From the IMG/VR virus record IMGVR_UViG_2917881069_000005: a stretch of 34,239 nt of DNA. The stretch is one strand, 5' to 3'. Origin of the DNA: a virus (taxonomy: Duplodnaviria; Heunggongvirae; Uroviricota; Caudoviricetes). Below are positions 2,434-25,978 of this stretch, in pieces. The notes beneath the pieces were generated by a model. That model had not been told where the DNA came from and did no database searches. It was given only the letters and a program-made list of their open reading frames with translations. Each line of letters starts with the position of its first letter. Within the stretch, counting starts at the first letter, position 1. Made by a program: the position numbers and the translations under genes.

Positions 2434-2434
2434 A

Positions 2435-7199: not shown

Positions 7200-7230
7200 C
7201 AGAACACCTTCAATTTTTAACCACAGAACG

Positions 7231-8627: not shown

Positions 8628-8856
8628 TCCGTTGATTCTCAATATTTGCCGTTTGCTTCAGCGTAAAAAAACATCAATTCCTACAGTTGGGCAGTGGTAC
8701 ACCACGCCTGCAGGGCATGTTCTACGTGTTAGCCTGGTTGACCGTGAATGTCAGAAGGTGATTTGTGAACCGCTGGGCCGTAATTACCGCGTCAGTATGC
8801 CGCTTATAGCCTTTCGCTCCGGAAAAAACATGAAGCATCTCGGAGGTGCAGCATGA
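8620..8856 (+). CDS. hypothetical protein (78 aa)
   Basis: ORF track; 8-bp overlap with upstream gene and ATGA overlap with downstream replication gene. Confidence 0.35.
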   Translation: MLNPLILNICRLLQRKKTSIPTVGQWYTTPAGHVLRVSLVDRECQKVICEPLGRNYRVSMPLIAFRSGKNMKHLGGAA

Positions 8857-9671: not shown

Positions 9672-9673
9672 TC

Positions 9674-10162
9674 ATGAGTCTTTTGAATGAAGTTCAGAAA
9701 TTCATTGAAGCCCATCCGGGGTGTACTTCCGGAGACATTGCGGATGCTTTTACAGGTTACTCACGGCAGCGCGTTCTGCAGTCAGCAAGCAAGTTACGTC
9801 AGAGTGGGCGTGTGGCTCACCGTTGTGAAGGGGATACACGCAGACATTTCCCGCGCCTGACTGAGAGAGCGCAGGAGCCGGAACCACAACCAGTTCGTGA
9901 AACCAGACCTGTGCGCAATTTCTATGTCGGCACTAACGATCCACGGGTGATTTTGTGCCTGACCCGCCAGGCTGAAGAACTGGAGTCAAGGGGCTTATAC
10001 CGTCGTGCTGCAACCGTGTGGATGGCGGCATTCCGTGAAAGCCACTCCCAGCCAGAACGAAACAATTTTCTGGCGCGTCGTGAGCGGTGCTTACGGAAAA
10101 GCAGCAAGCGCGCTGCATCGGGTGAAGAGTGGTATCTGTCAGGGAATTACGTGGGGGCTTAA
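9674..10162 (+). CDS. PerC-like putative transcriptional regulator
   Basis: C-terminal LESRGLYRRAATVWMAA resembles PerC-family motif; ATG 9674 preceded by AGGGGG. Confidence 0.4.
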   Translation: MSLLNEVQKFIEAHPGCTSGDIADAFTGYSRQRVLQSASKLRQSGRVAHRCEGDTRRHFPRLTERAQEPEPQPVRETRPVRNFYVGTNDPRVILCLTRQAEELESRGLYRRAATVWMAAFRESHSQPERNNFLARRERCLRKSSKRAASGEEWYLSGNYVGA

Positions 10163-10815
10163 TGAGTAATAAATATTGCCAGGCGCTGGTGGAACTGCGG
10201 AACAAACCAGTCCATGAACTGAAGGAAGTGGGCGATCAGTGGCGCACGCCGGACAACATTTTCTGGGGAATTAACACCCTGTTTGGCCCGTTTGTTCTGG
10301 ATCTGTTCACTGACGGTGATAACGCCAAATGTGCTGCGTATTACACGGCGGAAGACAACGCGCTGGCGCATGACTGGTCAGAACGTCTTGCGGAGCTTAA
10401 AGGTGCTGCCTTTGGTAATCCCCCATACAGCCGCGCCAGTCAGCATGAGGGGCAATACATCACCGGCATGCGTTACATCATGAAACATGCCAGTGCCATG
10501 CGTGATAAGGGCGGGCGCTATGTTTTCCTGATCAAAGCTGCCACCAGCGAAGTGTGGTGGCCGGAAGATGCGGACCATATTGCTTTTATTCGCGGGCGTA
10601 TTGGTTTTGAACTGCCTGCCTGGTTTATCCCGAAGGACGAGAAGCAGGTGCCGACAGGAGCGTTCTTCGCTGGTGCTATTGCTGTTTTCGACAAGACCTG
10701 GAAGGGACCGGCAATCAGCTACATCGGGCGCGATGAACTTGAGGCATGTGGTGAGGCGTTTCTGGCGCAGGTTCGCCAGCAGGCGGAAAAACTGGTCAGG
10801 GAGATGGCGGCATGA
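10162..10815 (+). CDS. phage-type DNA N6-adenine methyltransferase (Dam-like)
   Basis: NPPY motif (GNPPYSR); start at MSNKYCQ with TAATG overlap; ORF track 10129..10815. Confidence 0.75.
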   Translation: MSNKYCQALVELRNKPVHELKEVGDQWRTPDNIFWGINTLFGPFVLDLFTDGDNAKCAAYYTAEDNALAHDWSERLAELKGAAFGNPPYSRASQHEGQYITGMRYIMKHASAMRDKGGRYVFLIKAATSEVWWPEDADHIAFIRGRIGFELPAWFIPKDEKQVPTGAFFAGAIAVFDKTWKGPAISYIGRDELEACGEAFLAQVRQQAEKLVREMAA

Positions 10816-11138
10816 CGACGTTAACTCAATGCCAGCAGCAGGTGCTGGATATGCTGATTTCTTATCAGAAAGAACGTGGCTTCCCGCCAACCAATCAGGA
10901 GGTGGCAACCATGCTGGGATACCGTTCGGTGAATGCAGCGGTGGAGCATCTTCGCGCACTGGAGAAAAAAGGCGTCATCACGATAAAGCGTGGTGTGGCC
11001 CGGGGGATAACGCTTCATACCGCGGTGAAGGACGACGACAGCGAGGTGGTCGGGATTATCCGCTCACTGCTTGCCGGTGAGGAAAACGCCAGGCTGCGTG
11101 CAGCCCGCTGGTTACATGAGAGGGGCCTGAAAGTATGA
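10812..11138 (+). CDS. LexA N-terminal DNA-binding-domain-like protein lacking the S24 peptidase domain
   Basis: LTQCQQQVLDMLISYQKERGFPPTNQEVATMLGYRSVNAAVEHLRALEKKGVI closely resembles LexA winged-HTH; only 108 aa. Confidence 0.6.
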   Translation: MTTLTQCQQQVLDMLISYQKERGFPPTNQEVATMLGYRSVNAAVEHLRALEKKGVITIKRGVARGITLHTAVKDDDSEVVGIIRSLLAGEENARLRAARWLHERGLKV

Positions 11139-11524
11139 AGCTGATTCTGCCTTTTCCGCCCAGCGTGAACACGTACTGGCGACACCCCAACAAAGGGGCG
11201 TTTGCTGGTAAGAGCCTGATAAGCGCGGCGGGGCGAAAATTCCAGAGCGCGGCGTGCGCTGCAATAGTTGAGCAGTTACGTCGTCTGCCGAAACCAACGT
11301 CGGCACCTGCTTCAGTGGAGATCGTGTTGTTTCCTCCGGATAACCGGATCCGCGATCTGGACAACTATAACAAGGCGCTGTTTGACGCCCTGACCCACGC
11401 GGGTGTGTGGGAAGACGACAGCCAGGTGAAAAGAATGCTGGTGGAGTGGGGACCAGTTATCCCGGAAGGGAAGGTCGAGATCACTATCAGTAAGTACGAG
11501 AAAACGGCGGGTGCAGCCGCCTGA
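11135..11524 (+). CDS. rusA: Holliday junction resolvase RusA
   Basis: 129 aa; RusA signature including DLDNYNKALFDALT. Confidence 0.8.
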   Translation: MKLILPFPPSVNTYWRHPNKGAFAGKSLISAAGRKFQSAACAAIVEQLRRLPKPTSAPASVEIVLFPPDNRIRDLDNYNKALFDALTHAGVWEDDSQVKRMLVEWGPVIPEGKVEITISKYEKTAGAAA

Positions 11525-11543
11525 TTAAGAGGAGAAACGAAGT

Positions 11544-12353
11544 ATGAATAATCTGATGGTCATTGATGGTATTGAAGTTCGTCGTGATGCTTATGGGCGT
11601 TACAGCCTGAACGATCTGCATCGCGCAGCAGTAGCATCTGGTGCAAATGCCAGAACCAAGGAGCCAGGAAAGTTTCTTTCCAGCCAACAAACTGTTGAGC
11701 TTGTTCATGAATTGACCAACACCCAGAATTTGGGTGTTGACCCGGTGAGTGTGATTCATGGGGGAAATGAACGGGGAACGTATGTCTGCAAGGAACTGGT
11801 GTATGCCTATGCAATGTGGATCAGTCCATCATTCCATCTGAAGGTGATCCGTACTTTCGACATGGTAACCAGCGCACCGGATAAATTATCCGGACAGGCT
11901 GCTGACAAGATGCAGGCTGGTGTGATTCTGCTGGACTTTATGCGCCGGGAATTAAACCTGTCTAACTCTTCAGTGCTTGGTGCCTGTCAGAAACTCCAGG
12001 AGGCTGTTGGCTTACCGAATCTGGCACCGCGCTATGCCATTGATGCTCCTGCTGACGCGCCTGATGGCTCAAGCCGCCCCACGCTGTCACTGAGTGCACT
12101 GCTGAAGCAGTATGGTATCCGCCTGACAGCTAATCAGGCATATCACCAGATGGCGAAGCTGGGGATCGTTGAACAACGTGAACGATACAGCCGTACCGCG
12201 ATTAACAACATCAAAAAATTCTGGTCGCTGACGGCGAAAGGCTGCATGTTCGGTAAGAACATCACCAGCCCCGCAAATCCGCGCGAGACGCAGCCGCATT
12301 TCTTCGAATCCCGATTCCCTGAGCTGTTAAAGCTGCTCGATACCGTTCATTGA
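11544..12353 (+). CDS. KilA-N domain protein (antirepressor-like)
   Basis: N-terminal YSLNDLHRAA-type KilA-N signature; 269 aa. Confidence 0.55.
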   Translation: MNNLMVIDGIEVRRDAYGRYSLNDLHRAAVASGANARTKEPGKFLSSQQTVELVHELTNTQNLGVDPVSVIHGGNERGTYVCKELVYAYAMWISPSFHLKVIRTFDMVTSAPDKLSGQAADKMQAGVILLDFMRRELNLSNSSVLGACQKLQEAVGLPNLAPRYAIDAPADAPDGSSRPTLSLSALLKQYGIRLTANQAYHQMAKLGIVEQRERYSRTAINNIKKFWSLTAKGCMFGKNITSPANPRETQPHFFESRFPELLKLLDTVH

Positions 12354-12354
12354 G

Positions 12355-13350
12355 GTGACCGTGAGAGCACTACTGACCCCTGAAATTGCCCCGCGTATGG
12401 GGATCGTATTGTTCAGACCAGGTTCAGAGCTGATGCCCCTGTTTATGCAGGGGCGTGTCCTGCTGGAGCCTGAGCCGGAACGTTATTCATCTTTCGCCAG
12501 TGGTGCCGTTCCGGCGGCATCACAACCGCTGGCGGATGATCCTGCCGTTCAGGCCGTGTTCCGCAATGAGGCAGTGATCCGTCGTGCTGGTGGCGTGGAA
12601 TGTCTTGAAAGCTGGTTACTTCGTGAAAAAGGCTGCCAGTGGCCTCATTCCGACTGGCACAGCGAGAACATGACCACAATGCGACACGCTCCGGGCGCAA
12701 TCCGTCTGTGCTGGCACTGCGATAACCAGCTGCGCGATCAGTTCACGGAACGGCTGGAATCAATGGCAACGGATAACTGTGCCCGCTGGGTGTTGTCTGT
12801 TGTGCGTCGGGATCTCGGTTTTGATGATAGTCACGTTGTGACAATGCCGGAACTGTGCTGGTGGCTGATTCGTAATGATCTGGCGGATGCCTTACCGGAA
12901 AGTGCAGCCCGTAAGGCACTGAGATTACCGAAGCCTGTTGTGCCGTCTGTTACCCGGGAAAGTGACCTTGTGCCTTCGGTTCCTGCCACCAGCATCATCC
13001 AGGATAAAGTGAAAAAGGTGCTGGCGCTGAAAGTGGATCCGGAGTCGCCGGAGTCTTTTATGTTACGCCCAAAACGTCGCCGCTGGGTTAATGAAAAGTA
13101 CACACGCTGGGTTAAGACACAGCCGTGTGCATGTTGTGGTAAGCCTGCTGATGATCCCCACCACCTGATAGGTCACGGTCAGGGTGGAATGGGTACAAAA
13201 GCGCATGACCTCTTTGTGTTGCCTTTGTGCAGAAAGCATCACGACGAGCTGCATGCGGATACCGTGGCATTTGAAGAGAAGTATGGCTCCCAGCTGGAGC
13301 TGATATTTCGTTTTATCGATCGTGCGCTGGCAATTGGCGTGCTGGCCTGA
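12355..13350 (+). CDS. DUF968-type protein with C-terminal Cys/His (HNH-like) motif
   Basis: CACCGKPADDPHHLIGHGQGGMGTKAHDLFVLPLCRKHHDELH; GTG start. Confidence 0.55.
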   Translation: MTVRALLTPEIAPRMGIVLFRPGSELMPLFMQGRVLLEPEPERYSSFASGAVPAASQPLADDPAVQAVFRNEAVIRRAGGVECLESWLLREKGCQWPHSDWHSENMTTMRHAPGAIRLCWHCDNQLRDQFTERLESMATDNCARWVLSVVRRDLGFDDSHVVTMPELCWWLIRNDLADALPESAARKALRLPKPVVPSVTRESDLVPSVPATSIIQDKVKKVLALKVDPESPESFMLRPKRRRWVNEKYTRWVKTQPCACCGKPADDPHHLIGHGQGGMGTKAHDLFVLPLCRKHHDELHADTVAFEEKYGSQLELIFRFIDRALAIGVLA

Positions 13351-13371
13351 TTTTGTGGAGAAAGTTGATGC

Positions 13372-13734
13372 GTGATATTCAAATGGTTCTTGGAACGTTG
13401 GGGGGCATGGGTGGCAAATAATCACGAGGATGTCACCTGGTCGTCTATTGCTGCAGGATTTAAAGGACTAATCCCTTCAAAAGTAAAATCCCGCCCGCAA
13501 TGTTGTGACGATGACGCGATGATCATTTGTGGGTGCATGGCTCGCCTGAAAAAGAACAACAGCGATTTGCACGATTTATTAGTGGATTATTATGTAGGTG
13601 GTATGACGTTTATGGCGCTTGCCCGTAAACATGGGCGTTCTGATTGCTGGGTTGGGCGTTTATTGCAAAAGGCTGAAGGTGTAGTTGATGGCATGTTAAT
13701 GATGTTAGAAATTGAGCTAGAGATGGATCGTTAG
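13372..13734 (+). CDS. late antiterminator Q (short QuuD-type); N-terminus frame-disrupted
   Basis: [27 protein letters not shown] is Q-family-like; long frame can only start at GTG 13372, while a well-placed ATG (13368, GGAG 8 nt upstream) is in another frame and stops after 17 codons. Confidence 0.6.
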
Positions 13735-13776
13735 AAGACCTCTTATTGAGGGGGTAATTGAATCAGTTTAATGTGT

Positions 13777-13807
13777 GGGGAGTCGATTTATTCTCCCCAT
13801 TTTATTT
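13777..13807 (+). terminator. hairpin plus T-rich tract just downstream of Q
   Basis: GGGGAG-N10-CTCCCC followed by ATTTTATTT. Confidence 0.4.
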
Positions 13808-13818
13808 AATTAATTTAC

Positions 13819-14265
13819 TTAAGGTTTTAATTCATCAAGACGTTGTTGGATAGTGTTTTTGCTTGCGTTGTCTGTTATAGCCATTTGTTGTACTTGCCCC
13901 ATTGCCATTTGAGTTTCCATCCACATATCGGCCCACACTTTTGTATCGTTATTAACTTGAGCGATAGTAAATCTGACTTTTGATACCGGGGTTGTTGAAT
14001 AGGCATTGCCGATTAACATTTGTCCAAAAACAGCAGAGCCGCCTTCCAGTTCTTTACCACATATAACACTGCTGTTATCCGCGTTGTAAATTATCAACCC
14101 TCTACTATTGCAGTAATTCACAAGGGCATCTTTGACTTTATCTTTTGTCATATTTTGATAAACCCCCTCAGGTTTTCCTGATTGAGTTTTCTTTATCAAT
14201 GGTACGGAAGAAGTACAACCTGAAATGATAGTTGCGCTAAGTAATAGTACAGTCATTTTATTCAT
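13819..14265 (-). CDS. lipoprotein (moron, opposite strand)
   Basis: 148 aa; signal peptide with lipobox LLSATIISGC; encoded against the direction of flanking late genes. Confidence 0.6.
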   Translation of the reverse strand: MNKMTVLLLSATIISGCTSSVPLIKKTQSGKPEGVYQNMTKDKVKDALVNYCNSRGLIIYNADNSSVICGKELEGGSAVFGQMLIGNAYSTTPVSKVRFTIAQVNNDTKVWADMWMETQMAMGQVQQMAITDNASKNTIQQRLDELKP

Positions 14266-14330
14266 GTTTCTTATCCATTGTTAAGGGCATACCCACACAA
14301 TTATTTTTATTGGAGATGAATAATCAACCG

Positions 14331-14413
14331 TTTACAATCGTAAAAAATCAAATATGCTGTTAAGAGTGGTTACTTCGCCACACAACTTAAACCCGCCGCT
14401 GAGCGGTTTTTTT
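14331..14413 (+). promoter_or_regulatory. candidate late promoter (PR'-like) with short leader and T7-tailed hairpin (tR'-like)
   Basis: TTTACA-N16-TATGCT followed about 40 nt later by CCGC-loop-GCGG and TTTTTTT; weak stem, so tentative. Confidence 0.25.
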
Positions 14414-14511
14414 GTACCTGTAAACTTGGTGCAGTACAGTAAACACGCTGGTGGTCGTGAATACTGACTTTTTATCTTGCTGGCTTTTTAGACAAGAGTT
14501 ATTGGTATGTC

Positions 14512-14739
14512 ATGTTAACCAGAAGGGGAAAAGACATGCTAAAACAGCAAGATATGACAGAAACCGCCGCCGCAGTCCTTCATTTCTTACCTGCTGACAA
14601 GTGGGTAACGCCACGCATGATGACGAGAACTACCGGAGTAAGCGAAGCCCGGTGCCAGTTAATACTGACCCAGTTAGTTCTGGCGGGTCTGGCGAAGGAT
14701 AACGGCGGGTACGGGAATAAATTCAGACGCTGCCAGTAA
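14512..14739 (+). CDS. small hypothetical protein, possibly winged-helix
   Basis: 75-aa ORF; no family recognised. Confidence 0.3.
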   Translation: MLTRRGKDMLKQQDMTETAAAVLHFLPADKWVTPRMMTRTTGVSEARCQLILTQLVLAGLAKDNGGYGNKFRRCQ

Positions 14740-14889
14740 TGGCGGTTTCCTGCTGTGAAAATGGGCGGCTGGTGGGTGTTGGTAGCACCTGCCAGCCATT
14801 CGCTCATGCTTACTGGTCACAAGCGAACCACGGCCCACTGCTTTAGCGCAAAAGCAGAGTGAGCCTACCAGAGTTACGCTTACTGATCC

Positions 14890-15942
14890 ATGAAAAACAC
14901 TGTAAAAATAAACAGCGTTGATTTAATCAACGCTGATTGCCTGCATTTTATTCAGTCCCTGCCTGATGATTCCATTGACCTGATTGTTACCGATCCGCCG
15001 TACTTCAAGGTGAAACCCAACGGCTGGGACAATCAGTGGAAAGGGGACGAAGATTACCTTAAGTGGCTGGATCACTGTCTGGCCCAGTTCTGGCGGGTGT
15101 TAAAACCTGCTGGAAGCCTTTACCTGTTCTGTGGGCATCGCCTGGCATCTGATATTGAGATCATGATGCGTGAACGTTTCAACGTGCTTAACCATATCAT
15201 CTGGGCGAAGCCGTCCGGACGTTGGAATGGGTGTAATAAAGAAAGTCTGCGCGCATATTTTCCTGCCACAGAGCGCGTTCTGTTTGCTGAACATTACCAG
15301 GGGCCATATCGCGGCAAAAGTGACGGCTATGCGGCAAAAGAAAGGGAACTCAAACAGCACATAATGGCACCGCTGATATCGTATTTCAGGGATGCTCGTG
15401 CCGAACTGGGTATAACGGCAAAACAAATTGCCGAAGCCACAGGTAAGAAAAATATGGTTTCCCACTGGTTTGGTGCCAGTCAGTGGCAGTTGCCGAATGA
15501 GGCTGACTATCGGAAGTTACAGGCACTGTTTTCCCGTATAGCGGCAGAGAAGTTTCAGGAACAACAACTGGAACAACCACACCACCAGCTGGTGGCATCT
15601 TATGATTCACTGAATCGCAAATATTCTGAATTGCTGGATGAGTTTAAATCTCTCCGGCGCTATTTCTCCGTATCAGTCTCCGTGCCTTATACCGATGTCT
15701 GGATGCATAAACCCGTTCAGTTCTACCCGGGTAAACATCCGTGTGAGAAACCGGCGGATATGCTCAGGCAAATAATCAATGCCAGTAGTCGACCTGGTGA
15801 GCTGGTTGCTGATTTTTTTATGGGATCCGGTTCCACAATAAAAGCAGCAATGGCGCTGGGGCGTCGGGCCTTAGGTGTTGAGCTTGAGTCAGAGCGGTTT
15901 AACCAGACAGTGAAAGAGATAAACGAGCTGGTGGGGAAATAA
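14890..15942 (+). CDS. DNA methyltransferase, N6_N4 (beta-class amino-MTase) family
   Basis: DPPY motif (LIVTDPPYF) near N-terminus and AdoMet motif FFMGSGST near C-terminus; 350 aa. Confidence 0.8.
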
Positions 15943-15945
15943 TCT

Positions 15946-15973
15946 GGTGGCCACGTCAGGTGGCCTTTTTATT
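15946..15973 (+). terminator. rho-independent terminator between methyltransferase and holin
   Basis: GGCCAC-gtcag-GTGGCC followed by TTTTTATTT. Confidence 0.5.
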
Positions 15974-16009
15974 TCCATTACACAGCACCCGCATCTGCGA
16001 GGTGGGGTT

Positions 16010-16225
16010 ATGAAATCCATGGATAAGTTAACAACGGGTGTCGCCTATGGCACCTCAGCAGGTAGTGCCGGGTACTGGTTTTTACAGTTGCTCGATAAAG
16101 TCACGCCCTCACAGTGGGCGGCAATAGGTGTGCTGGGTAGTCTGGTATTTGGCTTGCTGACGTATCTGACAAACCTTTATTTCAAGATTAAAGAAGACAA
16201 GCGTAAGGCTGCACGGGGAGAGTAA
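16010..16225 (+). CDS. pinholin (phage 21 S21-like) with dual start
   Basis: MKSMDK dual-start motif; closely matches recalled S21 ([17 protein letters not shown]...[13 protein letters not shown]...[20 protein letters not shown]); ORF track 15947..16225. Confidence 0.75.
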
Positions 16226-16229
16226 TTCA

Positions 16230-16544
16230 ATGACTCAAAACTATGAACTGATTGTGAAAGGGATCCGCAATTTTGAGAATAAAGTTACGGTAACTGTAGC
16301 GTTACGGGACAAAAAACGCTTTGACGGTGAAATTTTTGACCTGGACATCTCGCTGGACCGTGTTGAAGGTGCCGCGCTGGAGTTTTATGAGGCAGCAGCC
16401 AGAAGGAGCATCAGACAGGTCTTCCTGGATGTTGCTGCCGGGTTATGTGAAGGGGACGAGCTGTTGCCAGAAACGCGCCCCTGTTCAGAGGCGCGGTATA
16501 CCATAAAAATTAACAGTTCTGATAACTCGATTAAGGGTTGTTAG
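16230..16544 (+). CDS. hypothetical protein inserted between holin and endolysin
   Basis: 104-aa ORF with GGAG upstream; no family recognised. Confidence 0.4.
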   Translation: MTQNYELIVKGIRNFENKVTVTVALRDKKRFDGEIFDLDISLDRVEGAALEFYEAAARRSIRQVFLDVAAGLCEGDELLPETRPCSEARYTIKINSSDNSIKGC

Positions 16545-16599
16545 CTTTTTGCAGTTGGCTTTCCAGTATCTTTCATTGGTAGCATCCTGATAAATATCC

Positions 16600-17598
16600 A
16601 TGAGCGCAAAAATCAAATACGGCCTGTCAGCTGCTGTTCTGGCGCTGATTGCTGCAGGCGCGTCTGCTCCTCAAATACTTGACCAGTTTCTGGATGAAAA
16701 AGAGGGTAACCACACTACGGCATACCGCGATGGTTCCGGTATATGGACCATCTGTCGTGGTGCCACAATGGTGGATGGTAAGCCCGTCATACCGGGAATG
16801 AAGCTGTCGAAGGAAAAATGCGACCAGGTTAACGCTATTGAACGTGATAAGGCGCTGGCATGGGTGGAGCGCAATATTAAAGTACCACTGACCGAACCAC
16901 AGAAAGCGGGTATAGCGTCATTTTGTCCCTATAACATTGGCCCCGGTAAGTGTTTCCCGTCGACGTTTTATAAGCGGCTGAATGCCGGTGATCGTAAGAG
17001 TGCATGCGAGGCGATTCGCTGGTGGATAAAAGATGGTGGGCGCGATTGCCGCATACGTTCAAATAACTGCTATGGACAGGTTATTCGTCGTGACCAGGAA
17101 AGCGCATTAGCCTGTTGGGGGGATAGATCAGTGAGCAGAGTCGCCGCGATTATTTATGCTCTGGTTATCTGCATCATCGTCTGCCTGTCGTGGGCGGTCA
17201 ATCATTACCGTGATAACGCCATCGCCTACAAAGAACAGCGTGATAAAAAAGTCAGTGAGCTGAAGCAGGCGACCGCCACCATTACTGACATGCAGCAACG
17301 CCAGCGTGCTGCTGATGTACTCGATGCTAAATACACGAAGGAGTTGGCTGATGCGAAAGCTGAAAATGATGCTCTTCGGCGCAAGCTTGATAATGGTGGT
17401 CGGGTGCTCGTCAAAGGAAAATGCTCTGTGCCATCCTCAGCCGAAACCTCCAGCGCCTCCGGCATGGGCAATGATGCCACCGTCGAACTCTCTCCAGTTG
17501 CTGGACGAAACGTTCTCGGTATCCGGGACGGAATCATCAGAGACCAGACAGCACTGAGAACGCTTCAGGAATATATCAGGACGCAATGCCTTCGATGA
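16600..17598 (+). CDS. SAR endolysin (T4-lysozyme-type, P21 R-like) whose frame runs without a stop into Rz
   Basis: N-terminal signal-anchor ([18 protein letters not shown]) and lysozyme core ([22 protein letters not shown]); no stop before Rz; G6 run at about 17117-17122. Confidence 0.7.
17131..17598 (+). CDS. Rz: i-spanin Rz
   Basis: [34 protein letters not shown]... nearly identical to recalled lambda Rz; GTG start preceded by GGGGGGA. Confidence 0.75.
17351..17557 (+). CDS. Rz1: o-spanin Rz1 (embedded in Rz, +1 frame)
   Basis: [19 protein letters not shown] lipobox, Pro-rich [12 protein letters not shown]; inside ORF 17306..17557. Confidence 0.7.
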
Positions 17599-17770
17599 TA
17601 GCGATTAATTTTACTCATCATCCTTCACATCTGGCTCTGTAGACAGGGTGGTGATCACTTCTGGAGTGAATCCAGATTAAACATCTCATTGCTGATGCTT
17701 GAAGTTGAGCATCTGGCGCGCGGTAAGGGGCTGCGTTGAAATAAGAGCCAGTCATTACAAATACCAGGAT

Positions 17771-17800
17771 TTAGCCTCGTATTCGCGGGGCTTTTTATTG
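17771..17800 (+). terminator. terminator-like hairpin after the lysis cassette
   Basis: AGCCTCG...CGGGGCT imperfect stem followed by TTTTTATT. Confidence 0.3.
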
Positions 17801-18414
17801 CCATTACAAAAGCCACTCCCTACAGAGTGGCTTTGATAATGGCTTATACCCTACACGGGATAACTTAACTGATATCCCTTTTAACGGATAAAGGTATTCA
17901 AGCCTGACACATCATGCGCTGTATCGTCGCCGTATTCCCGTATTAACAGAGACCGTAGCCCGACGGGGAACTCCTTCTGCGAGAGTGTGCGGGAATAATC
18001 AAAAACGATGCACACCGGGTTTTTACCGCGTTTATGGTTCGCGGGTTTGTCCCTCATGCTCGCCAGTCCTGTGCGGGGGTGGAAGAAACAGGATACTCAC
18101 ACAGATTCTTGTGGGCACGATGCTATTCCTTTCTGGATTATCCCGATGCCATTCATGCAAGGCGCTGTATCAGACGTTCGTCATGGCTGTCAGGCTGACG
18201 GGTCCTCCCGGTGGGGTGGCCTGCCACGGGGCGGGAGCGTCGCGGAAAAAGGCTAGTTTTTGCATTTTTATCGGCCACCATCATCTTTGCATCTTATTGA
18301 TTATTAATGGTTATTTGTTTTTTGTATGTCGAATTGAGTGTTTTTTGTTCGACATCGAACGCGTTTTCTTAAAGTTGTTCGCACGATGCATGTTTAAAGC
18401 TCTCCGGAGGAAAT

Positions 18415-18906
18415 ATGGATCATGAGTTGAAAAACCTGGTGCTGAATATTAATCAACTGGCGGCTTTATCTGGTCTGCACCGCCAGACTGTCGTGGCAAG
18501 ACTGAAAAACATTCGTCCCGCTGGTGGACATGACAAACTCAAGCTATACCGGTTGACCGATATTCTGACTGAATTTATGGGGTTACCACCGCCGGTTGCT
18601 GAGGGCGAAATGGATCCACATGAACGCAAAGCCTGGTATCAGTCTGAACGTGAGCGTCTTAAGTTCGAACAGGAAACGGCACAACTCATTCCGGCCAGTG
18701 ATGTCAGACGGGAGTTTGCCATCTGGGCAAAAGCGGTCGTGCAGGTGCTGGAGACATTACCGGATATTCTGGAACGTGACTGCGGCCTGCAGCCTGCCGC
18801 TGTGAGCCGTGTTCAGTCCATTATTGATGATCTGCGCGATCAGATAGCCCTGCGGGTGACCGAAGCAGGTGCGGATGATGAGGAGGAATTACAGCAGGAG
18901 GAGTAA
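18415..18906 (+). CDS. terminase small subunit (Nu1-like, N-terminal HTH)
   Basis: 163 aa; HTH-like LNINQLAALSGLHRQTVVARLKN; immediately upstream of and overlapping (TAATG) the large terminase. Confidence 0.6.
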   Translation: MDHELKNLVLNINQLAALSGLHRQTVVARLKNIRPAGGHDKLKLYRLTDILTEFMGLPPPVAEGEMDPHERKAWYQSERERLKFEQETAQLIPASDVRREFAIWAKAVVQVLETLPDILERDCGLQPAAVSRVQSIIDDLRDQIALRVTEAGADDEEELQQEE

Positions 18907-21009
18907 TGCTGAATCAGGAAACCGCAAAGGCAGCACGAACCGATTCAGGTTATATCCTTCGCGCACCGAGACGAATGCTGGTTGCTGATGCCGTTGCTCA
19001 GTATATGCGGGTGCCCATGGGGGCCGGGAACTCAGTCCCGTGGGATCCGCTGGTGGCACCGTATGTTATTGAGCCGATGAACTGCCTGGCCTCGCGTGAA
19101 TACGACGCAGTGATATTTGTTGGCCCGGCACGAACTGGCAAGACTATCGGCCTGATTGACGGCTGGGTGATTTACAACGTGATTTGCGATCCTGCGGATA
19201 TGTTGATCATTCAGATGACGGAGGAAAAAGCCCGCGAACACTCCAAAAAAACGACTTGCCAGAACGTTTCGCGTCAGCCCGGAAGTGGTCAGTCGCCTGA
19301 GTCCGAACAAAAATGACAACAACGTTTATGACAGAACATTCCTTGCTGGCAACTACCTGAAAATCGGCTGGCCGTCAGTCAATATCATGTCCTCATCAGA
19401 TTATAAATGCGTGGCGCTGACGGATTATGACCGTTTTCCGGAAGATATTGATGGCGAGGGGGATGCCTTCTCTCTTGCCTCAAAACGTACCACCACATTT
19501 ATGTCCAGTGGTATGACGCTGGTGGAGAGTTCCCCCGGCAGGGATGTGAAGGATGTGAAATGGCGACGGACTTCACCGCATGAGGCTCCACCAACCACGG
19601 GGATACTGTCGCTCTATAACCGTGGCGATCGCCGTCGCTGGTACTGGCCCTGTCCACACTGTGGTGAGTATTTTCAGCCCTGCGGCGATGTGGTTGCTGG
19701 TTTCCGTGATATTGCCGATCCCGTGCTGGCAAGTGAGGCGGCTTATATTCAGTGTCCTTCCTGTTCAGGACGGATTATGCCTGAACAAAAACGTGAGCTG
19801 AACGGACGTGGGGTCTGGTTGCGGGATGGTGAATCCATCAATGCGGATGGCAGTCGTTATGGTGATCCCCGACGCTCACGTATTGCGTCATTCTGGATGG
19901 AGGGTCCGGCAGCTGCTTACCAGACACTCTCGCAACTCGTTTACAAACTGCTTACTGCAGAACAGGAATACGAGACAACCGGAAGTGAAGAAACACTCAA
20001 GACGGTTATCAATACCGACTGGGGATTACCTTATCTTCCCCGTGCCAGCATGGAGCAACGAAAAAGTGAACTGCTTGAACAGCGGGCAGAGCCAGTTCCT
20101 TCCCGCAGTGTGCCGGATGGCGTTAATTTCCTGGTGGCGACAGTTGATGTGCAGGCGGGACGTCATCGCCGTTTTGTGGTTCAGGTAACGGGCTATGGCA
20201 GCCGTGGCGAACGCTGGATTATTGATCGTTACAACATCACGCAGTCATTGCGCGGTGACAGCGACGGGGAGAGCCAGCGAATTGATCCGGCCAGCTATCC
20301 GGAAGACTGGGATGTCCTGCTGACGGATGTTTTTCATAAAAGCTGGCCGCTGGCCTCCGATCCTTCTCAACAAATGCGACTGATGGCAATGGCGGTGGAC
20401 TCCGGCGGTGAAGACGGGGTCACTGATAATGCCTATAAATTCTGGCGTCGTTGCCGTCGTGATGGCCTTGGTAAACGTATTTACCTGTTTAAGGGCGACA
20501 GCATCCGGCGCGCAAAACTGATCACCCGTACATTCCCTGATAACACCGGACGAACGGGCCGACGGGCGCAGGCCGCAGGTGATGTGCCGCTCTGGCTTCT
20601 TCAGACGGATGCCCTGAAAGACCGGGTGAATAACGCGTTATGGCGTGACTCTCCAGGTCCCGGCTATGTGCATTTCCCTGACTGGCTGGGGAGCTGGTTT
20701 TACGACGAACTGACGTATGAAGAGCGGAGTAGTGACGGGAAATGGAGTAAGCCGGGTCGCGGTGCCAACGAAGCTTTTGACCTGATGGTGTATGCCGAGG
20801 CTCTGGTCATTCTGCATGGATACGAAAAGATCCGCTGGCCGGATGCACCGGAGTGGGCGAGCCGGGAAACCTGGCTGGAGTGTGTCCCGGACAGTACCGA
20901 ACCGTCACCCTCACCGGAACCGGTATCCACGCCTGTTAAAAAACAAAAACGGAAGAAAACAGTAACTGACGATGTTAACCCCTGGCTGACTTCCGGAGGA
21001 TGGTTATGA
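18906..21009 (+). pseudogene. A: terminase large subunit (lambda gpA family) split into two frames at an A7 run
   Basis: ORFs 18906..19316 (Walker-A-like VGPARTGKT) and 19285..21009 (WYWPCPHCGEYF, gpA-like); deleting one A in AAAAAAA at about 19245-19251 joins them into one frame reading ...HSKKRLARTFRVSPEVVSRL... Confidence 0.6.
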
Positions 21010-21218
21010 ACCAGAATGATATCGAAGCCATGATTCAGCGTTATACGGAAGCTGAAATGGCGGTGCTGGACGGAAAATCCGTCACCTTTAATGGTCAGCA
21101 GATGACCATGGAAAACTTATCTGAGATCCGGCAGGGACGGCAGGAGTGGGAGCGCCGCCTTGCGGCTCTGATTACACGACGACGGGGGCATCCCGGGTAC
21201 CGGCTGGCGAGGTTCTGA
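21006..21218 (+). CDS. W: head-tail joining protein W-like
   Basis: About 70 aa; ...GRQEWERRLAALITRRRG resembles gpW; GGAGGA upstream; ORF track 21000..21218. Confidence 0.6.
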   Translation: MNQNDIEAMIQRYTEAEMAVLDGKSVTFNGQQMTMENLSEIRQGRQEWERRLAALITRRRGHPGYRLARF

Positions 21219-22726
21219 TGGCAATTCTTGATGATGTGATTGGCGTTTTTTCACCAGGATGGAAAGCGGCAAGGCTGCGTTCCCGTGCGGTGATCCAGGC
21301 TTATGAGGCCGTAAAAACGACGCGGACACATAAAGCCCGGCGGGAAAACCGAACTGCCGACCAGTTAAGCCAGTACGGGGCCGTGTCGTTACGTGAGCAG
21401 GCCCGTTACCTTGATAACAACCACGATCTGGTCATTGGTGTATTTGACAAGCTGGAAGAACGGGTGGTGGGGAAAAACGGGATTATTGTCGAGCCACATC
21501 CGGTATTACGCAATGGGGCCATTGCCCGTGATCTGGCAGCGGAGATACGCACCCGATGGAGTGAATGGTCTGTCAGTCCGGAAGTCACCGGGCAGTTTAC
21601 CCGTCCGATGCTGGAACGTCTGATGCTGCGTACCTGGCTGCGCGATGGTGAGGTGTTTGCCCAGATGGTTTCCGGGCGCATAAACAGCCTGACGCCTTCT
21701 GCCGGTGTTCATTTCTGGCTGGAGGCGCTCGAGCCGGACTTTATTCCCATGACCAGTGATGAGAGCAACAGGCTGAATCAGGGCGTGTTTGTTGATGACT
21801 GGGGGCGTCCCGAAAAATATCTGGTGTATAAAAGCCGTCCCGTATCCGGGCGGCAGATGGAAACCAAAGAAGTGGATGCAGAGCGAATGCTGCATCTTAA
21901 ATTTGTTCGCCGTCTGCACCAGATGCGCGGGACGTCTTTGTTGTCCGGTGTGCTGATCCGCCTCAGTGCCCTGAAAGAGTATGAAGATTCTGAGCTGACT
22001 GCAGCAAGGATCGCCGCTGCTCTGGGGATGTACATCCGCAAAGGCGACGGACAGAGCTATGAAACGGATGGTAATGACAGCAAGGAGAATGAACGCGAGC
22101 TTACCATTCAGCCAGGCATTATTTACGACGATCTGAAACCCGGCGAAGAAATCGGAATGGTGAAGTCGGATCGCCCCAATCCTAATCTTGAAACTTTTCG
22201 TAATGGTCAGTTGCGTGCCGTGGCGGCGGGTAGTCGTCTGAGTTTTTCCAGTACAGCGCGCAACTATAACGGCACTTACAGCGCCCAGCGTCAGGAGCTG
22301 GTTGAATCCACTGATGGCTACCTGATCCTGCAGGACTGGTTTATTGGTGCCGTCACCCGCCCGATGTATCGTGCCTGGCTGAAACAGGCTGTGGCATCCG
22401 GTGTTATCAGGCTACCCCGCGATCTTGATCGTTCTTCACTGTATACCGCGGTGTATTCCGGACCGGTGATGCCGTGGATTGACCCTGTTAAGGAGGCTGA
22501 GGCCTGGAAAATTCAGATTCGTGGTGGAGCGGCGACAGAATCAGACTGGGTACGTGCAGGTGGTCGTAATCCGGATGATGTTAAACGTCGGCGCAAGGCA
22601 GAAATTGATGAAAACCGCAAGCTGGATCTGGTATTTGATACCGATCCTGCCAGTGATAAAGGAGGCAGCAGTGCCGCAACGAAACGACAGGAGCCGCAGC
22701 ACACCGACGACCAGTCCGAAGAATAA
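21218..22726 (+). CDS. B: portal protein (lambda gpB family)
   Basis: 502 aa from MAILDD (TGATG overlap with W stop); portal-size, position and sequence character; ORF track 21146..22726. Confidence 0.75.
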   Translation: MAILDDVIGVFSPGWKAARLRSRAVIQAYEAVKTTRTHKARRENRTADQLSQYGAVSLREQARYLDNNHDLVIGVFDKLEERVVGKNGIIVEPHPVLRNGAIARDLAAEIRTRWSEWSVSPEVTGQFTRPMLERLMLRTWLRDGEVFAQMVSGRINSLTPSAGVHFWLEALEPDFIPMTSDESNRLNQGVFVDDWGRPEKYLVYKSRPVSGRQMETKEVDAERMLHLKFVRRLHQMRGTSLLSGVLIRLSALKEYEDSELTAARIAAALGMYIRKGDGQSYETDGNDSKENERELTIQPGIIYDDLKPGEEIGMVKSDRPNPNLETFRNGQLRAVAAGSRLSFSSTARNYNGTYSAQRQELVESTDGYLILQDWFIGAVTRPMYRAWLKQAVASGVIRLPRDLDRSSLYTAVYSGPVMPWIDPVKEAEAWKIQIRGGAATESDWVRAGGRNPDDVKRRRKAEIDENRKLDLVFDTDPASDKGGSSAATKRQEPQHTDDQSEE

Positions 22727-22739
22727 TTCCTGGTTCAGG

Positions 22740-23714
22740 ATGCAGGCTGGTCACCAGAGTGACGCGGATATTTATATTTATGACGAGATTGGTTTCTGGG
22801 GTGTTACAGCGAAGCAGTTTATCAGTGATCTGAATGCACTGGGCGATATCACCCACATTAATCTCCATATCAATTCACCGGGTGGCGATGTCTTTGAAGG
22901 CATCGCCATTTTTAATGCGCTGAAAACACATGGTGCGTCCATTACCGTTTATGTCGACGGTGTGGCGGCGTCAATGGCGTCGGTCATTGCGATGGTGGGA
23001 AACCCGGTCATTATGCCGGAAAACACCTTCATGATGATTCATAAACCATTTGGCTTTACGGGCGGTGATGCGGAGGACATGCGCACCTATGCTGACCTGC
23101 TCGATAAGGTTGAGGCGGTTCTGTTACCCGCTTATGCACAGAAAACCGGGAAAACCACCGATGAAATTGCTGCCATGCTGGCGGATGAGACCTGGATGTC
23201 CGGTGCCGAATGTCTGGCACATGGATTTGCTGATCAGGTGACGCCAGCCGTTAAGGCAATGGCATGTATTCAGTCAAAACGTACAGAGGAATTTAAAAAG
23301 ATGCCGGAATCCATTCGAAACATGATTACTCCGCCACGCAACAGTGCTCCACGCGTACAGGATGATGAACCAGCAGCCTCCCGGACGCCAGTGCAGGCAG
23401 CAGCACCCGTGGTGGATGAAAACAGTATCCGTGCGCAGGTACTGGCAGAGCAAAAAGCGCGTGTAAACGGTATTAATGATCTGTTTGCCATGTTTGGCGG
23501 GCGTTATCAGACGCTGCAGGCTCAGTGTCTTGCCGATCCTGAATGTTCGCTGGAGCAGGCCCGCGAAAAGCTGTTGAACGAGATGGGGCGCGAGTCCACG
23601 CCATCCAATAAAAATACCCCGGCTCATATTTATGCCGGTAACGGTAATTTTGTGGGGGACGGGATCCGCCAGGCGCTGATGGCGCGTGCCGGATTTGAAA
23701 AAACCGAAACGTGA
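22740..23714 (+). CDS. ClpP-like prohead protease with C-terminal scaffold-like extension
   Basis: ClpP-type signatures (HINSPGGDV, AASMASVIAM, MIHKP); start at internal MQAGHQ of ORF 22479..23714. Confidence 0.7.
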   Translation: MQAGHQSDADIYIYDEIGFWGVTAKQFISDLNALGDITHINLHINSPGGDVFEGIAIFNALKTHGASITVYVDGVAASMASVIAMVGNPVIMPENTFMMIHKPFGFTGGDAEDMRTYADLLDKVEAVLLPAYAQKTGKTTDEIAAMLADETWMSGAECLAHGFADQVTPAVKAMACIQSKRTEEFKKMPESIRNMITPPRNSAPRVQDDEPAASRTPVQAAAPVVDENSIRAQVLAEQKARVNGINDLFAMFGGRYQTLQAQCLADPECSLEQAREKLLNEMGRESTPSNKNTPAHIYAGNGNFVGDGIRQALMARAGFEKTET

Positions 23715-23730
23715 TAATGTCTACAACGGG

Positions 23731-24699
23731 ATGACCCTGCGTGAATATGCCCGTATGTCACTGACTGAACGGGGTATTGGGGTTTCCAGTTATAACCCGA
23801 TGCAGATGGTCGGTGCGGCGTTCACACACAGTACGTCTGACTTCGGTAATATTCTGCTGGATGTTGCGAACAAAGCCATTCTGCAGGGCTGGGAAGATGC
23901 TCCTGAAACCTATGAACAGTGGACGCGGAAAGGTCAGTTGTCTGATTTTAAAATTGCCCATCGTGTGGGTATGGGGGGCTTCAGTGCTCTGCGTCAGGTG
24001 CGTGAAGGGGCGGAATATAAATACGTCACCACCGGAGATAAACAGGCCACTATTGCACTGGCGACCTATGGCGAGCTGTTCAGTATCACCCGTCAGGCCA
24101 TTATCAATGATGATCTGAATATGCTGACCGATGTCCCGATGAAACTGGGCCGTGCGGCGAAATCCACTATTGCCGATCTGGTTTATGCCATTCTGACGTC
24201 TAACCCGAAAATCTCCACAGATAATGTAAGTCTGTTCGATAAAGCGAAACATGCAAACGTACTGGAGAGCGCTGCAATGGACGTGGCATCGCTGGATAAA
24301 GCCCGCCAGTTGATGCGCGTTCAGAAAGAGGGGGAGCGTCATCTGAATATTCGTCCTGCGTTCGTACTGGTACCGACGGCGATGGAGTCTGTTGCTAACC
24401 AGGTCATTCGCTCCTCAAGTGTCAAGGGGGCTGACATTAACGCCGGTATTATTAACCCGGTGAAAGATTTTGCGACCGTTATTGCAGAGCCTCGTCTTGA
24501 TGATAACAGCCAGACCACCTTCTACCTGGCTGCGTCAAAAGGCTCCGATACAATTGAAGTGGCTTATCTCAACGGTGTGGATACGCCATATATTGATCAG
24601 ATGGAGGGCTTCAGTGTGGATGGCGTGACAACGAAAGTGCGTATTGACGCCGGTGTCGCGCCAGTTGATCACCGCGGTCTGGTGAAATGTACGGCGTAA
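23731..24699 (+). CDS. major capsid protein (HK97-fold; not lambda gpE-like)
   Basis: Follows protease; about 320 aa; start ambiguous (GTG 23686 or ATG 23731). Confidence 0.65.
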   Translation: MTLREYARMSLTERGIGVSSYNPMQMVGAAFTHSTSDFGNILLDVANKAILQGWEDAPETYEQWTRKGQLSDFKIAHRVGMGGFSALRQVREGAEYKYVTTGDKQATIALATYGELFSITRQAIINDDLNMLTDVPMKLGRAAKSTIADLVYAILTSNPKISTDNVSLFDKAKHANVLESAAMDVASLDKARQLMRVQKEGERHLNIRPAFVLVPTAMESVANQVIRSSSVKGADINAGIINPVKDFATVIAEPRLDDNSQTTFYLAASKGSDTIEVAYLNGVDTPYIDQMEGFSVDGVTTKVRIDAGVAPVDHRGLVKCTA

Positions 24700-24721
24700 A
24701 CGTCGCAGACAACAACTCTGA

Positions 24722-24742
24722 TGGCCCGTAAGGGCTTTTTTT
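24722..24742 (+). terminator. hairpin plus T7 after major capsid gene
   Basis: GCCC-gtaa-GGGC followed by TTTTTTT; a second hairpin CAGCCCC-tgaac-GGGGCTG lies at about 24753-24771. Confidence 0.4.
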
Positions 24743-24785
24743 GTACCTGAAATCAGCCCCTGAACGGGGCTGTGCGGAGACAGTT

Positions 24786-25108
24786 ATGGCAAAGAATTTT
24801 GTAGAAGAAGGAAAAACGGTGGCGATTGTTGCCAGTGCAGCCATCAGCAGCGGAGATCTGGTGCAGGTGGGTGATGTTTTGCGGTGGCGCTGACCGATAT
24901 TCCACAGGGTGAAACAGGCGACGGCATGACCGAAGGTGTGTTTATGCTGCCTAAGCTGAAAACGGATGACATGAAAACGGGTAAGAAGGTTTATCTGAAG
25001 TCCGGAAAAGTTCAGCTGACTAACAGCGGCTCTGATCCGCTGGTCGGGGTTGTCTGGGCAGATGCCGGAACCAGTGCAGAAGAAGTGCCGGTAAAACTCA
25101 ATGTCTGA
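24786..25108 (+). pseudogene. small head protein (DUF2190-like), frame-disrupted
   Basis: ATG 24786 with GGAGA RBS opens a 35-codon frame (MAKNFVEEGKTVAIVASAAISSGDLVQVGDVLRWR*) abutting out-of-frame ORF 24884..25108; one added G near 24882 would give a continuous about 107-aa product. Confidence 0.45.
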
Positions 25109-25376
25109 TCCCTTTTCCCGGCTGGCAGCGCGTATGGATGCGATCACGGTCAGAAAGATGGGAAAGACAGCCTCGATTAATGATGTCGATATGACTGTGA
25201 TCCCGGGAGAAACACTGGCAGAGCTGAATGCTCTGTCCGGACCTGCGGTCTCTCTGGTGGTGTTTTCTTCGGGATACCGCCCACGGCGCGGGGATTGCGT
25301 TGTTTATGACGGACAACAATGGACGGTCACACGGCATGAACGCTTTAACGGTAAGCCAATGATCTTTATTGAGTAA
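25101..25376 (+). CDS. head-tail joining protein, FII-like
   Basis: 91 aa; position and RRGD-containing pattern resemble lambda FII; ATG overlaps upstream stop. Confidence 0.45.
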   Translation: MSDPFSRLAARMDAITVRKMGKTASINDVDMTVIPGETLAELNALSGPAVSLVVFSSGYRPRRGDCVVYDGQQWTVTRHERFNGKPMIFIE

Positions 25377-25387
25377 AGAGGTATGGG

Positions 25388-25978
25388 ATGAAGGGGCTTG
25401 AGAATGCCATCCGCAATCTGAACAGCCTTGATACCCGTATGGTGCCACAGGCCAGCGCATGGGCGATAAACCGTGTGGCACAGAAAGCGGTCTCGGTTGC
25501 CACCCGGCAGGTTGCCGGGAATACCGTTGCGGGAGATAACCAGGTGAAAGGGATCCCCCTGAAACTGGTACGTCAGCGTGTCCGGGTGTTTAAAGCCAGT
25601 CCGTCAGGAAAAATGACGGCCAGGATCCGCGTTAACCGGGGCAATCTGCCCGCCATCAAACTGAACACAACACGGCGGCGTGCTGGTGAAGGACTGAGAG
25701 TGGGAAAATACTTTTTCCGGGGGGCATTTGTTCAGCAACTGGCGAATGGCCGCTGGCATGTTCTGAGGCGTCTTCCTGAAGCGCGTTTTGCAACAGGGCA
25801 TGACCATCAGGGCAGGCCAAGAAAAAATCGTCTTCCTGTGGAGGTAGTGAAAATCCCGCTGTCCGGACCGCTGACACAGGCATTTGAAGATGCCCGCGAC
25901 CGCATCATTGCTGCGGAAATGCCGAAACAGCTGGGGTATGCACTGAAACAACAACTGAGGTTATGGCTGACCCGATGA
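25388..25978 (+). CDS. Z: tail completion protein Z
   Basis: 196 aa; gpZ-family sequence character and position before U. Confidence 0.7.
   Translation: MKGLENAIRNLNSLDTRMVPQASAWAINRVAQKAVSVATRQVAGNTVAGDNQVKGIPLKLVRQRVRVFKASPSGKMTARIRVNRGNLPAIKLNTTRRRAGEGLRVGKYFFRGAFVQQLANGRWHVLRRLPEARFATGHDHQGRPRKNRLPVEVVKIPLSGPLTQAFEDARDRIIAAEMPKQLGYALKQQLRLWLTR

Follow-up and report, generated by a model that had tools for sequence, protein, structure and literature searches.

The frame disruptions in the late genes of the prophage described here are, judging from sequence comparison, very probably errors that flow-based (Ion Torrent) sequencing left in the consensus, and no mutations in the DNA of the strain. 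The window, by which we mean the whole analysed stretch of 34,239 nt, holds a lambdoid prophage that adjoins zur and a remnant of dusA. Its head module resembles that of mEp460 and its tail module that of lambda, and the prophage spans from its first gene, encoding a Panacea-domain protein, to a contig break within the tail-tip gene J. Disruptions were called by comparison with seven to ten close relatives having intact genes. In this way seven private 1-nt indels were found in the window, six within 13368-25108 and one in J, 14 nt before the window end, and all of them are one-base changes in run length (G1→2, G5→6, T1→2, A6→7, A2→3, T5→4 and A3→2). This pattern exceeds chance: against the seven private indels in the window there are no uncompensated coding indels among the relatives themselves in these genes, and three of the seven sit in runs of at least five bases, and such runs account for just 2.5% of the window.

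The seven indels and the prophage that carries them

All affected genes lie on the forward strand. The gene for antiterminator Q (13368-13734, 121 aa when intact, with its ATG at 13368) has an extra G at 13392-13393 in codon 9, leading to a stop after 17 codons; the site reads CTTGGAAC in the window and CTTGAAC in the relatives, and a 120-aa ORF in the new frame starts with a GTG at 13372. The lysozyme gene R (177 aa when intact) is changed from G5 to G6 at 17117-17122, codon 173, and is thereby fused to the Rz frame, yielding a 332-aa ORF at 16600-17598. The change leaves the Rz ORF (17131-17598, 155 aa) as it was, and the GenBank record (L050) also calls a 155-aa protein. Overlapping the end of Rz is orf50 (17586-17739, 50 aa), with an extra T at 17605-17606, codon 7. 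The gene for the terminase large subunit (TerL; 18906-21009, 700 aa when intact) is changed from A6 to A7 at 19245-19251, codon 114, and is split into 136 and 574 aa. In the head region a gene encoding a fusion of a ClpP-like prohead protease and the major capsid protein (22671-24699, 675 aa when intact) reads AAA instead of AA at 23707-23709, codon 346, and the DUF2190 / Phage_cement_2 small head gene (24786-25108, 107 aa when intact) has T4 instead of T5 at 24877-24880, codon 31, leaving a 74-aa ORF at 24884-25108. Finally, the 5' part of J (33334-34239), which runs off the contig end, has AA instead of AAA at 34225-34226, codon 298.

A preliminary description of this DNA, made from the letters alone, had listed four of these disruptions. 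All four exist in the genes it named, with the G6 run in R-Rz and the A7 run in TerL exactly as described, but the interval holds six, those in orf50 and in the protease-capsid gene having been missed. The extra base reported for Q is there as a G and not as a T, and the small head gene has indeed lost one base, which is a T and not the G that was proposed. The tail genes, described as intact, are so from Z through I but not in J. A further run-length difference, AA against AAA in the 4-5 nt spacer between L and K (31979-31980, forward strand), is a natural allele in E. coli Z247, R11, HCM-25C-3 and PG20180057; since it is common to Z247, R11 and others we regard it as an ordinary polymorphism and no lesion. 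When the Q allele with the extra G and the G6 allele were sought by exact-pattern scans of viral_contigs and genome_contigs neither was seen, so that the window is absent from both collections, and an exact-protein look-up of the R-Rz fusion, the 120-aa Q ORF and a 337-aa capsid fragment in the protein collection returned none.

Collinear gene order and high nucleotide identity place the prophage in the PhiR55_1 / mEp460-head / lambda-tail lambdoid type. Over window 8689-34239 it is 98-99.7% identical to PhiR55_1, PCP06235, Z247 and L053, with the same annotated gene series. From Q to the head genes the nucleotide identity is about 99% to the Escherichia phages PhiR55_1 (PV340571) and PhiR40_1 (PV340560), the records of which give propagation hosts (E. 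coli C, ECOR13), and to the prophages at dusA/zur in E. coli PCP06235, HCM-25C-3 and E138, which share the chromosomal location of the window prophage. The group and the window have a common order of Q, methylase, holin, YdfR, R, Rz, orf50, DUF1441, TerL, portal, protease-capsid, DUF2190 and Z-U-V-G-T-H-M-L-K-I-J. In the group the late genes are all intact, whereas the window is set apart by its seven 1-nt indels; all indel sites are intact in the close relatives, including the viable phages PhiR55_1 (about 99% identical) and PhiR40_1. The closest relative, L053, is 99.67% identical, and in window 18221-25945 it differs by four substitutions as against three indels. The left-end cargo is different, consisting of the Panacea-domain gene and a 182-aa gene in the window and of YafM/YafO in PhiR55_1. 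Enterobacteria phage mEp460 (NC_019716) has terminase, portal, protease/scaffold-capsid and head-decoration genes with 98% nucleotide identity to the window, but the match is confined to the head module, leaving the early and lysis regions unmatched. The prophage itself would most likely be an intact PhiR55_1 / mEp460-like member of the lambdoid phages.

Sequencing platform and lesions in neighbouring chromosomal genes

The whole window (1-34239, forward strand) corresponds to PDIG01000039.1:49384-83622 from Escherichia sp. E2661, that is to the final 34,239 nt of the GenBank contig, so that the contig end is the window end and the contig break falls inside J. Between window 4890-25942 and PDIG01000039.1:54273-75325, 21,053 of 21,053 bases are identical (100.000%), and the product of window 16230-16541 carries the database name "YdfR family protein [Escherichia sp. 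E2661]". The preliminary description had proposed to check the sequencing platform, and this could be done from the literature: PDIG00000000 is strain E2661, sequenced by Ion Torrent with single-end reads of 35-400 nt at approximately 40x; the assembly was made with MIRA and SPAdes, and no other platform is described (PMC6639607). By way of PDIG01000039.1 and that report, the window sequence comes from a flow-based platform uncorrected by another technology. A long-read (nanopore or PacBio) assembly had been suspected from the occurrence of T4 and A5/A7 alleles in error-laden long-read assemblies, but was ruled out by the published platform (PMC6639607). Among 16 assemblies of the project the number of CDS per Mb drops with rising coverage (Spearman rho -0.50, p=0.05).

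In Ion Torrent sequencing, according to the literature, the run length of identical bases is read from a single pH signal. Bragg et al. 2013 found short runs over-called and long runs under-called, with high-frequency indels about once per kb; such an indel appears in the majority of reads covering its site (PMC3623719) and therefore persists into the consensus. Assemblies from this platform carry frameshifts and surplus pseudogenes (PMC12046094). The window indels resemble such flow-call errors (PMC3623719, PMC12046094) in being single-base run-length miscalls that include over-called short runs, with a density of 0.2-0.5 per kb here, where the known errors reach up to about one per kb of reference sequence. 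Unlike the typical under-calling of long runs (Bragg et al., PMC3623719), the G5→G6 and A6→A7 changes, compared at consensus level, are over-calls. Run-length miscalls of one base each would account for all seven window sites.

The same kind of lesion is found in chromosomal genes next to the prophage. In the 8 kb chromosomal flank of PDIG01000039.1 the plsB frame changes twice, by A→AA at position 17215 and CC→C at position 17618 of L056, the reverse complement of which corresponds to window 1-12433, and the ubiA frame changes once (L056 19821), as seen against five other, mutually agreeing Escherichia genomes. The GenBank record has no protein for plsB and none for ubiA. With three lesions in 8.0 kb of flank and seven in 34.2 kb of window the difference in density is not significant (P=0.29), and on this one flank of one contig indispensable housekeeping genes are thus broken at a density similar to that of the prophage genes. 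The sibling Ion Torrent assembly E2748 carries another plsB indel (T5→T6), and because it differs from those of E2661 the plsB lesions are not inherited. In E. coli K-12 plsB is essential. Strain E2661 grew overnight in LB (PMC6639607).

A second assembly was available for part of the contig. The Logan assembly of run SRR6148326 shows no substitutions relative to GenBank over 7,552 nt, a stretch in which there is also a strain-specific gene that no contig but these two was found to carry, and the run apparently consists of the E2661 reads, an assignment made because the sequences are identical and not from SRA metadata. Between the Logan contig and GenBank there is a single difference, a G/GG indel that breaks dgkA, and each end of the Logan contig falls precisely on a run-length site, one being an A7 run (window 2765-2771) and the other the A/AA site in plsB. 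A Logan contig of this run over the prophage indel sites was sought with the 136-aa and 574-aa TerL fragments and with YdfR and none was found; the comparison covers the left end and the flank. The preliminary description had named systematic homopolymer indel errors as one of two explanations, and an Ion Torrent assembly at 40x with lesions of the same kind in adjacent housekeeping genes supports it.

Reversion of the indels

Each of the six indels within 13368-25108 was undone and the resulting product compared with database proteins, end to end. It is clear from the comparison that every one of the six reverted proteins is 100% identical to a database protein, with zero extra amino-acid changes over approximately 1,730 codons. 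Moreover these are common proteins: reverted Q, orf50, protease-capsid and DUF2190 are each found on at least 1000 contigs, reverted TerL on 998 contigs and the reverted lysozyme R on 127 contigs. When the window was compared with its relatives no IS element, larger deletion or nonsense substitution was seen, and the further signs of decay that would mark a cryptic prophage (IS elements, deletions, nonsense codons or relaxed protein constraint) are absent from it. Private substitutions had been considered as a measure of neutral decay and proved uninformative, being mostly third-codon-position polymorphism absent from the small panel (e.g. with multiples-of-3 spacing across the portal gene), and the exact-protein test was used instead. 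The other explanation in the preliminary description, a defective prophage, finds no support in these results, as nothing beyond the seven 1-nt indels points to decay and the six reverted proteins are common alleles.

Almost certainly the broken late genes are sequencing errors in a low-coverage draft and no evidence of prophage decay, and the finding is an ordinary one. It carries a caution, namely that flow-based (Ion Torrent, 454) or unpolished long-read drafts create apparent pseudogenes which can pass for decay of a prophage, for pseudogenisation or for phase variation. In the present case a cheap and decisive test consisted of asking whether reversion of an indel restores the common allele, and whether essential genes on the same contig are likewise "broken".

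Alternative readings of the indels

Several observations speak against a pure artefact, the over-calling of the two long runs (G5→G6 and A6→A7) among them. A part amounting to 34% of the window contains six of the seven private indels (binomial P=0.008) while the early region (1-13367) has none, and over window and flank the distribution is mildly heterogeneous (chi-square P=0.043); local coverage, or interference by reads that stem from co-resident lambdoid prophages, can only be guessed at as a cause of the clustering. Furthermore, the A7 allele of TerL is also present in other assemblies, where the haplotypes differ, and T4 turns up in some contigs that are clean in other respects, and TerL A7 or DUF2190 T4 could be a real recurrent slippage allele. 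We therefore weighed a mixed case, in which most of the indels are Ion Torrent errors and one or two are real slippage mutations that make the prophage genuinely defective, the best candidates being TerL A6→A7 and DUF2190 T5→T4. The A7 allele is present in five other assemblies with TerL haplotypes 3-22 substitutions apart, A5 is present in four others, and a 14-kb Logan contig (L008) shows the 136 + 574 split of TerL, while its remaining head and tail genes are all intact. Similarly, the 74-aa DUF2190 product is found in NCBI draft genomes and in Logan contig L026, whose other late genes are all intact, and real defects are known in this prophage family, an example being the internal stop that interrupts the protease-capsid gene of E. 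coli Z247. However, most carriers of T4 are frameshifted throughout every gene, pointing to long-read error, and L053, the nearest TerL haplotype (one substitution), carries A6, so that the A7 of the window arose privately, in an assembly for which errors of this type have been demonstrated. Flow chemistry also fails most at runs of 5-6 bases (PMC3623719, PMC12046094), and altogether we hold the mixed case to be unlikely. If all six or seven indels were real they could have accrued after loss of function, perhaps because the lineage was deficient in mismatch repair or because selection acted against the genes for lysis and packaging. The clustering in the Q-lysis-head region would fit this, as would the run-length changes throughout, which are expected of replication slippage, and loss of the affected functions (Q, lysis, packaging and capsid) would protect the host. 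Such a genuinely defective prophage would, however, also require that the two frameshifts in plsB and the one in ubiA, which lie on this contig too, be real in a strain that grew in LB, and the G/GG site at which the second assembly, apparently of the same reads, differs from GenBank speaks against it as well. Slow decay should bring many more substitutions than indels, whereas the six broken genes show no amino-acid change relative to common alleles and the window has no IS element, deletion or nonsense codon, and Ion Torrent is known for exactly this artefact (PMC3623719, PMC12046094). We consider this reading very improbable, and because of the platform and the plsB and ubiA frameshifts it is doubtful that the strain's DNA really contains inactivating lesions. 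If they were, the window would add one further defective lambdoid prophage of an already familiar kind.

The Sp prophages of E. coli O157:H7 Sakai are like the window in being lambdoid and inducible-looking with frameshifted late genes. Reportedly (Asadulghani et al. 2009), IS insertions, deletions and substitutions are found in them as well, and finished genome sequences have confirmed their lesions. The window differs from them in having 1-nt indels only, of a kind also present in housekeeping genes of the same draft. Long homopolymers serve transcriptional slippage in some systems. Two of the window sites are long homopolymers (A7 and G6), and the sites might accordingly be ribosomal frameshift or transcriptional slippage sites for gene expression, but three sites are no homopolymer in the relatives (G1, T1 and A2) and the shifted arrangement is not conserved among them. 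Each gene is a single uninterrupted ORF, with its run shorter or longer than in the window, in every close relative, viable phages included, and on account of these intact ORFs programmed recoding was rejected as extremely improbable.

Apart from the consensus errors that we favour for the window as a whole, it is conceivable, though quite improbable, that the A6 tract at codon 114 of TerL is a genuine hypermutable site in this widespread head module, where slippage to A7 or A5 recurrently turns off packaging in otherwise intact prophages, and that the A7 of E2661 is real. Slippage in this tract would then be a simple and reversible path to prophage domestication.

Single-nucleotide lesions in the late region

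The window is a lambdoid prophage. Over 13368-25108 it shares about 99% identity with Escherichia phages PhiR55_1 and PhiR40_1, and it is just as similar to prophages that many E. coli genomes carry beside zur and a dusA remnant. In the records of these relatives the interval reads Q, DNA methylase, holin, YdfR, lysozyme R, Rz, a 50-aa ORF, DUF1441, TerL, a 70-aa ORF, portal, a ClpP-protease/major-capsid fusion and a DUF2190 head protein, with a lambda-like tail series Z-U-V-G-T-H-M-L-K-I-J located 3' of the DUF2190 gene. The head module is of the phage mEp460 type.

The window was aligned with PhiR55_1 and the PCP06235 prophage, and then with a panel of ten relatives. Six uncompensated 1-nt indels, common to none of the relatives, were found in 13368-25108, and their coordinates and consequences were checked by translation. 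On the plus strand, Q has an extra G at 13392 (codon 9); a G5 run in R has become G6 at 17117-17122 (codon 173 of 177), which joins R to the Rz frame in a 332-aa ORF; the 50-aa ORF after Rz has an extra T at 17605; the TerL gene has A7 for A6 at 19245-19251 (codon 114 of 700); the protease-capsid gene has AAA for AA at 23707 (codon 346 of 675); and the DUF2190 gene has T4 for T5 at 24877 (codon 31 of 107). A further lesion, AAA to AA at 34225 in J (also plus strand), lies 14 nt before the window end. The four disruptions named in the preliminary description (Q, R-Rz, TerL and the small head gene) thus all exist, but two more in the same interval had been missed, the extra base in Q is a G instead of a T, and the base lacking from the small head gene is a T instead of a G.

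No private indel was seen in 1-13367 among the relatives compared, which cover all but about 2772-3307. An AA/AAA difference at 31979, between L and K, is common to Z247, R11 and other strains and is therefore a normal polymorphism. Against its closest relative, at 99.67% identity, the window shows 4 substitutions and 3 indels in 18221-25945.

In the region 13357-13375 a GTG at 13372 lies four bases past the normal Q ATG, in the frame made by the extra G, and opens a 120-aa ORF in which only the first 6-7 residues depart from normal Q. Were the extra G real, this start might still allow Q to be produced.

Source assembly and its chromosomal flank

Positions 4890-25942 are identical to contig PDIG01000039.1 (83,622 nt) at all 21,053 positions, and 1-12433 is the reverse complement of a second stretch of the same contig; hence the window corresponds to PDIG01000039.1:49384-83622 and runs to the end of the contig, which falls inside J. 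The methylase protein of the window was found on this contig by exact-protein match, and the database name of its YdfR protein assigns it to Escherichia sp. E2661. The NCBI annotation of the contig lists Q, R, TerL and the protease-capsid gene without protein, and a DUF2190 protein of 74 aa. [quoted passage not shown] The preliminary description had called for a check of the sequencing platform, and the source turns out to be Ion Torrent only: single-end reads of 35-400 nt at 40x, the lowest coverage class among 16 strains, assembled with MIRA and SPAdes without a second technology (PMC6639607). In the project's 16 Ion Torrent assemblies the number of CDS per Mb is lower at higher coverage (rho -0.50, p=0.05), with 910-931 at 100x versus about 970-1030 at 40-45x (from Table 1, PMC6639607), a weak indication that frameshifts commonly split genes in assemblies of lower coverage. 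The contig stops directly after the J lesion (34225-34239). J recurs from one lambdoid prophage to another, so the assembly appears to have broken at a repeat, leaving a contig end of poor quality.

The same kind of lesion is present outside the prophage. When E. coli proteins were compared by tblastn with 8 kb of E2661 chromosomal flank to the left of window position 1, plsB changed frame twice and ubiA once (16494-19947 of the fetched contig stretch L056). By DNA alignment these lesions are A to AA, CC to C and one extra base, at sites where five other Escherichia genomes agree with one another, and the GenBank E2661 record has plsB and ubiA without protein. plsB is essential in E. coli K-12. 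Strain E2661 was grown overnight in LB (PMC6639607). In the sibling Ion Torrent assembly E2748 plsB is broken at a different place (T5 to T6), so the flank lesions are not inherited. With 3 lesions in 8.0 kb, against 7 in the 34.2 kb of the window, the flank is no less densely hit (P=0.29).

A second consensus, apparently from the same reads, was located through a strain-specific 157-aa DUF551 protein (1960-2433), present on only two contigs of the whole protein collection: the GenBank contig and one from the Logan assembly of run SRR6148326. Over the 7,552 nt that they have in common there are zero substitutions and a single G/GG indel difference, dgkA being broken in Logan and not in GenBank. 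The Logan contig starts exactly at the A7 run at 2765-2771 and ends exactly at the plsB A/AA site, as is expected of a k-mer assembler where reads disagree on run length. Judged by this sequence identity rather than by metadata, SRR6148326 is probably the E2661 run.

Sequencing error versus decay

All seven lesions change the length of a run by one, and three of them sit in runs of at least 5 bases, a class that accounts for 2.5% of the window. Ion Torrent over-calls short runs and under-calls long ones, and about once per kb it produces a 'high-frequency indel', an error repeated in most reads at that position (Bragg et al. 2013); because of this recurrence such errors would survive 40x coverage. 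Frameshifts and excess pseudogenes have been described for Ion Torrent assemblies (PMC12046094). Some observations fit poorly. Six of the seven private indels lie within 34% of the window (P=0.008), with mild heterogeneity of counts over the flank, early, late and tail regions (P=0.043), for which uneven coverage or reads of co-resident lambdoid prophages with the same late region are our guesses; and G5 to G6 and A6 to A7 are over-called long runs, not the typical direction.

Were all lesions real, E2661 would carry a multiply frameshifted prophage. Genuine defects do occur in this prophage family, as the protease-capsid gene of the finished E. coli Z247 genome (NZ_CP021207.1; 9563-11590 of fetched stretch L028) carries an internal stop and a pseudogene annotation. 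In slow decay with six independent frameshifts, however, substitutions should far outnumber indels. When the six indels of 13368-25108 were undone in silico, the products (Q 121 aa, R 177, the ORF after Rz 50, TerL 700, protease-capsid 675 and DUF2190 107) were each identical over the full length to a protein in the public collection, carried on 127 contigs for R and on about 1000 or more for each of the other five. Thus about 1,730 codons of supposedly dead genes show no amino-acid change against common alleles, and comparison with relatives revealed no IS element, larger deletion or nonsense codon in the window. We regard a prophage with all lesions real as highly improbable. Programmed recoding is excluded, since every relative has intact ORFs.

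A mixed case, in which one or two lesions are real slippage alleles, draws on their recurrence elsewhere, which likewise fits error alone less neatly. At the TerL codon-114 A6 tract five other assemblies have A7 and four have A5, on several TerL haplotypes 0-22 substitutions apart, and in one 14-kb Logan contig this break is the only broken gene. The T4 allele of DUF2190, with its 74-aa product, recurs on dozens of contigs; 9 of the 10 listed come from assemblies with nearly every phage gene fragmented, so that T4 in those nine looks like long-read error, while another Logan contig (L026) carries T4 and is otherwise intact. Both tracts are accordingly hot spots, technical or biological, and for the TerL tract the choice lies between a sequencing hot spot and a site of natural slippage. 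We give the mixed case a small chance. The best explanation is that the frame disruptions are not a real biological feature; very probably they are consensus errors from Ion Torrent sequencing in an E2661 prophage that is itself probably intact.

Variable regions of the prophage

The left end (1-1045) holds a Panacea (SocA) domain gene (1-474) followed by a 182-aa gene of unknown function (497-1045). In PhiR55_1 and E. coli E138 the same position is occupied by a YafO-family toxin gene with an upstream partner (YafM in the phage record), and in PCP06235 and HCM-25C-3 by another Panacea-domain gene with a 128-aa partner. This end has the look of a slot for exchangeable cargo, namely toxin-antitoxin or defence genes. 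On the minus strand at 2161-3307 lie small ORFs of 157, 62, 58, 82 and 109 aa with no counterpart in any relative fetched.

The portal gene carries, at 22231-22648, seven substitutions absent from a seven-genome panel. Their spacing in multiples of three places them all at the same codon position, and the portal protein exactly matches a very common protein, so they do not alter it. Such a pattern fits recombination, with a functional relative outside the sample, and not decay.
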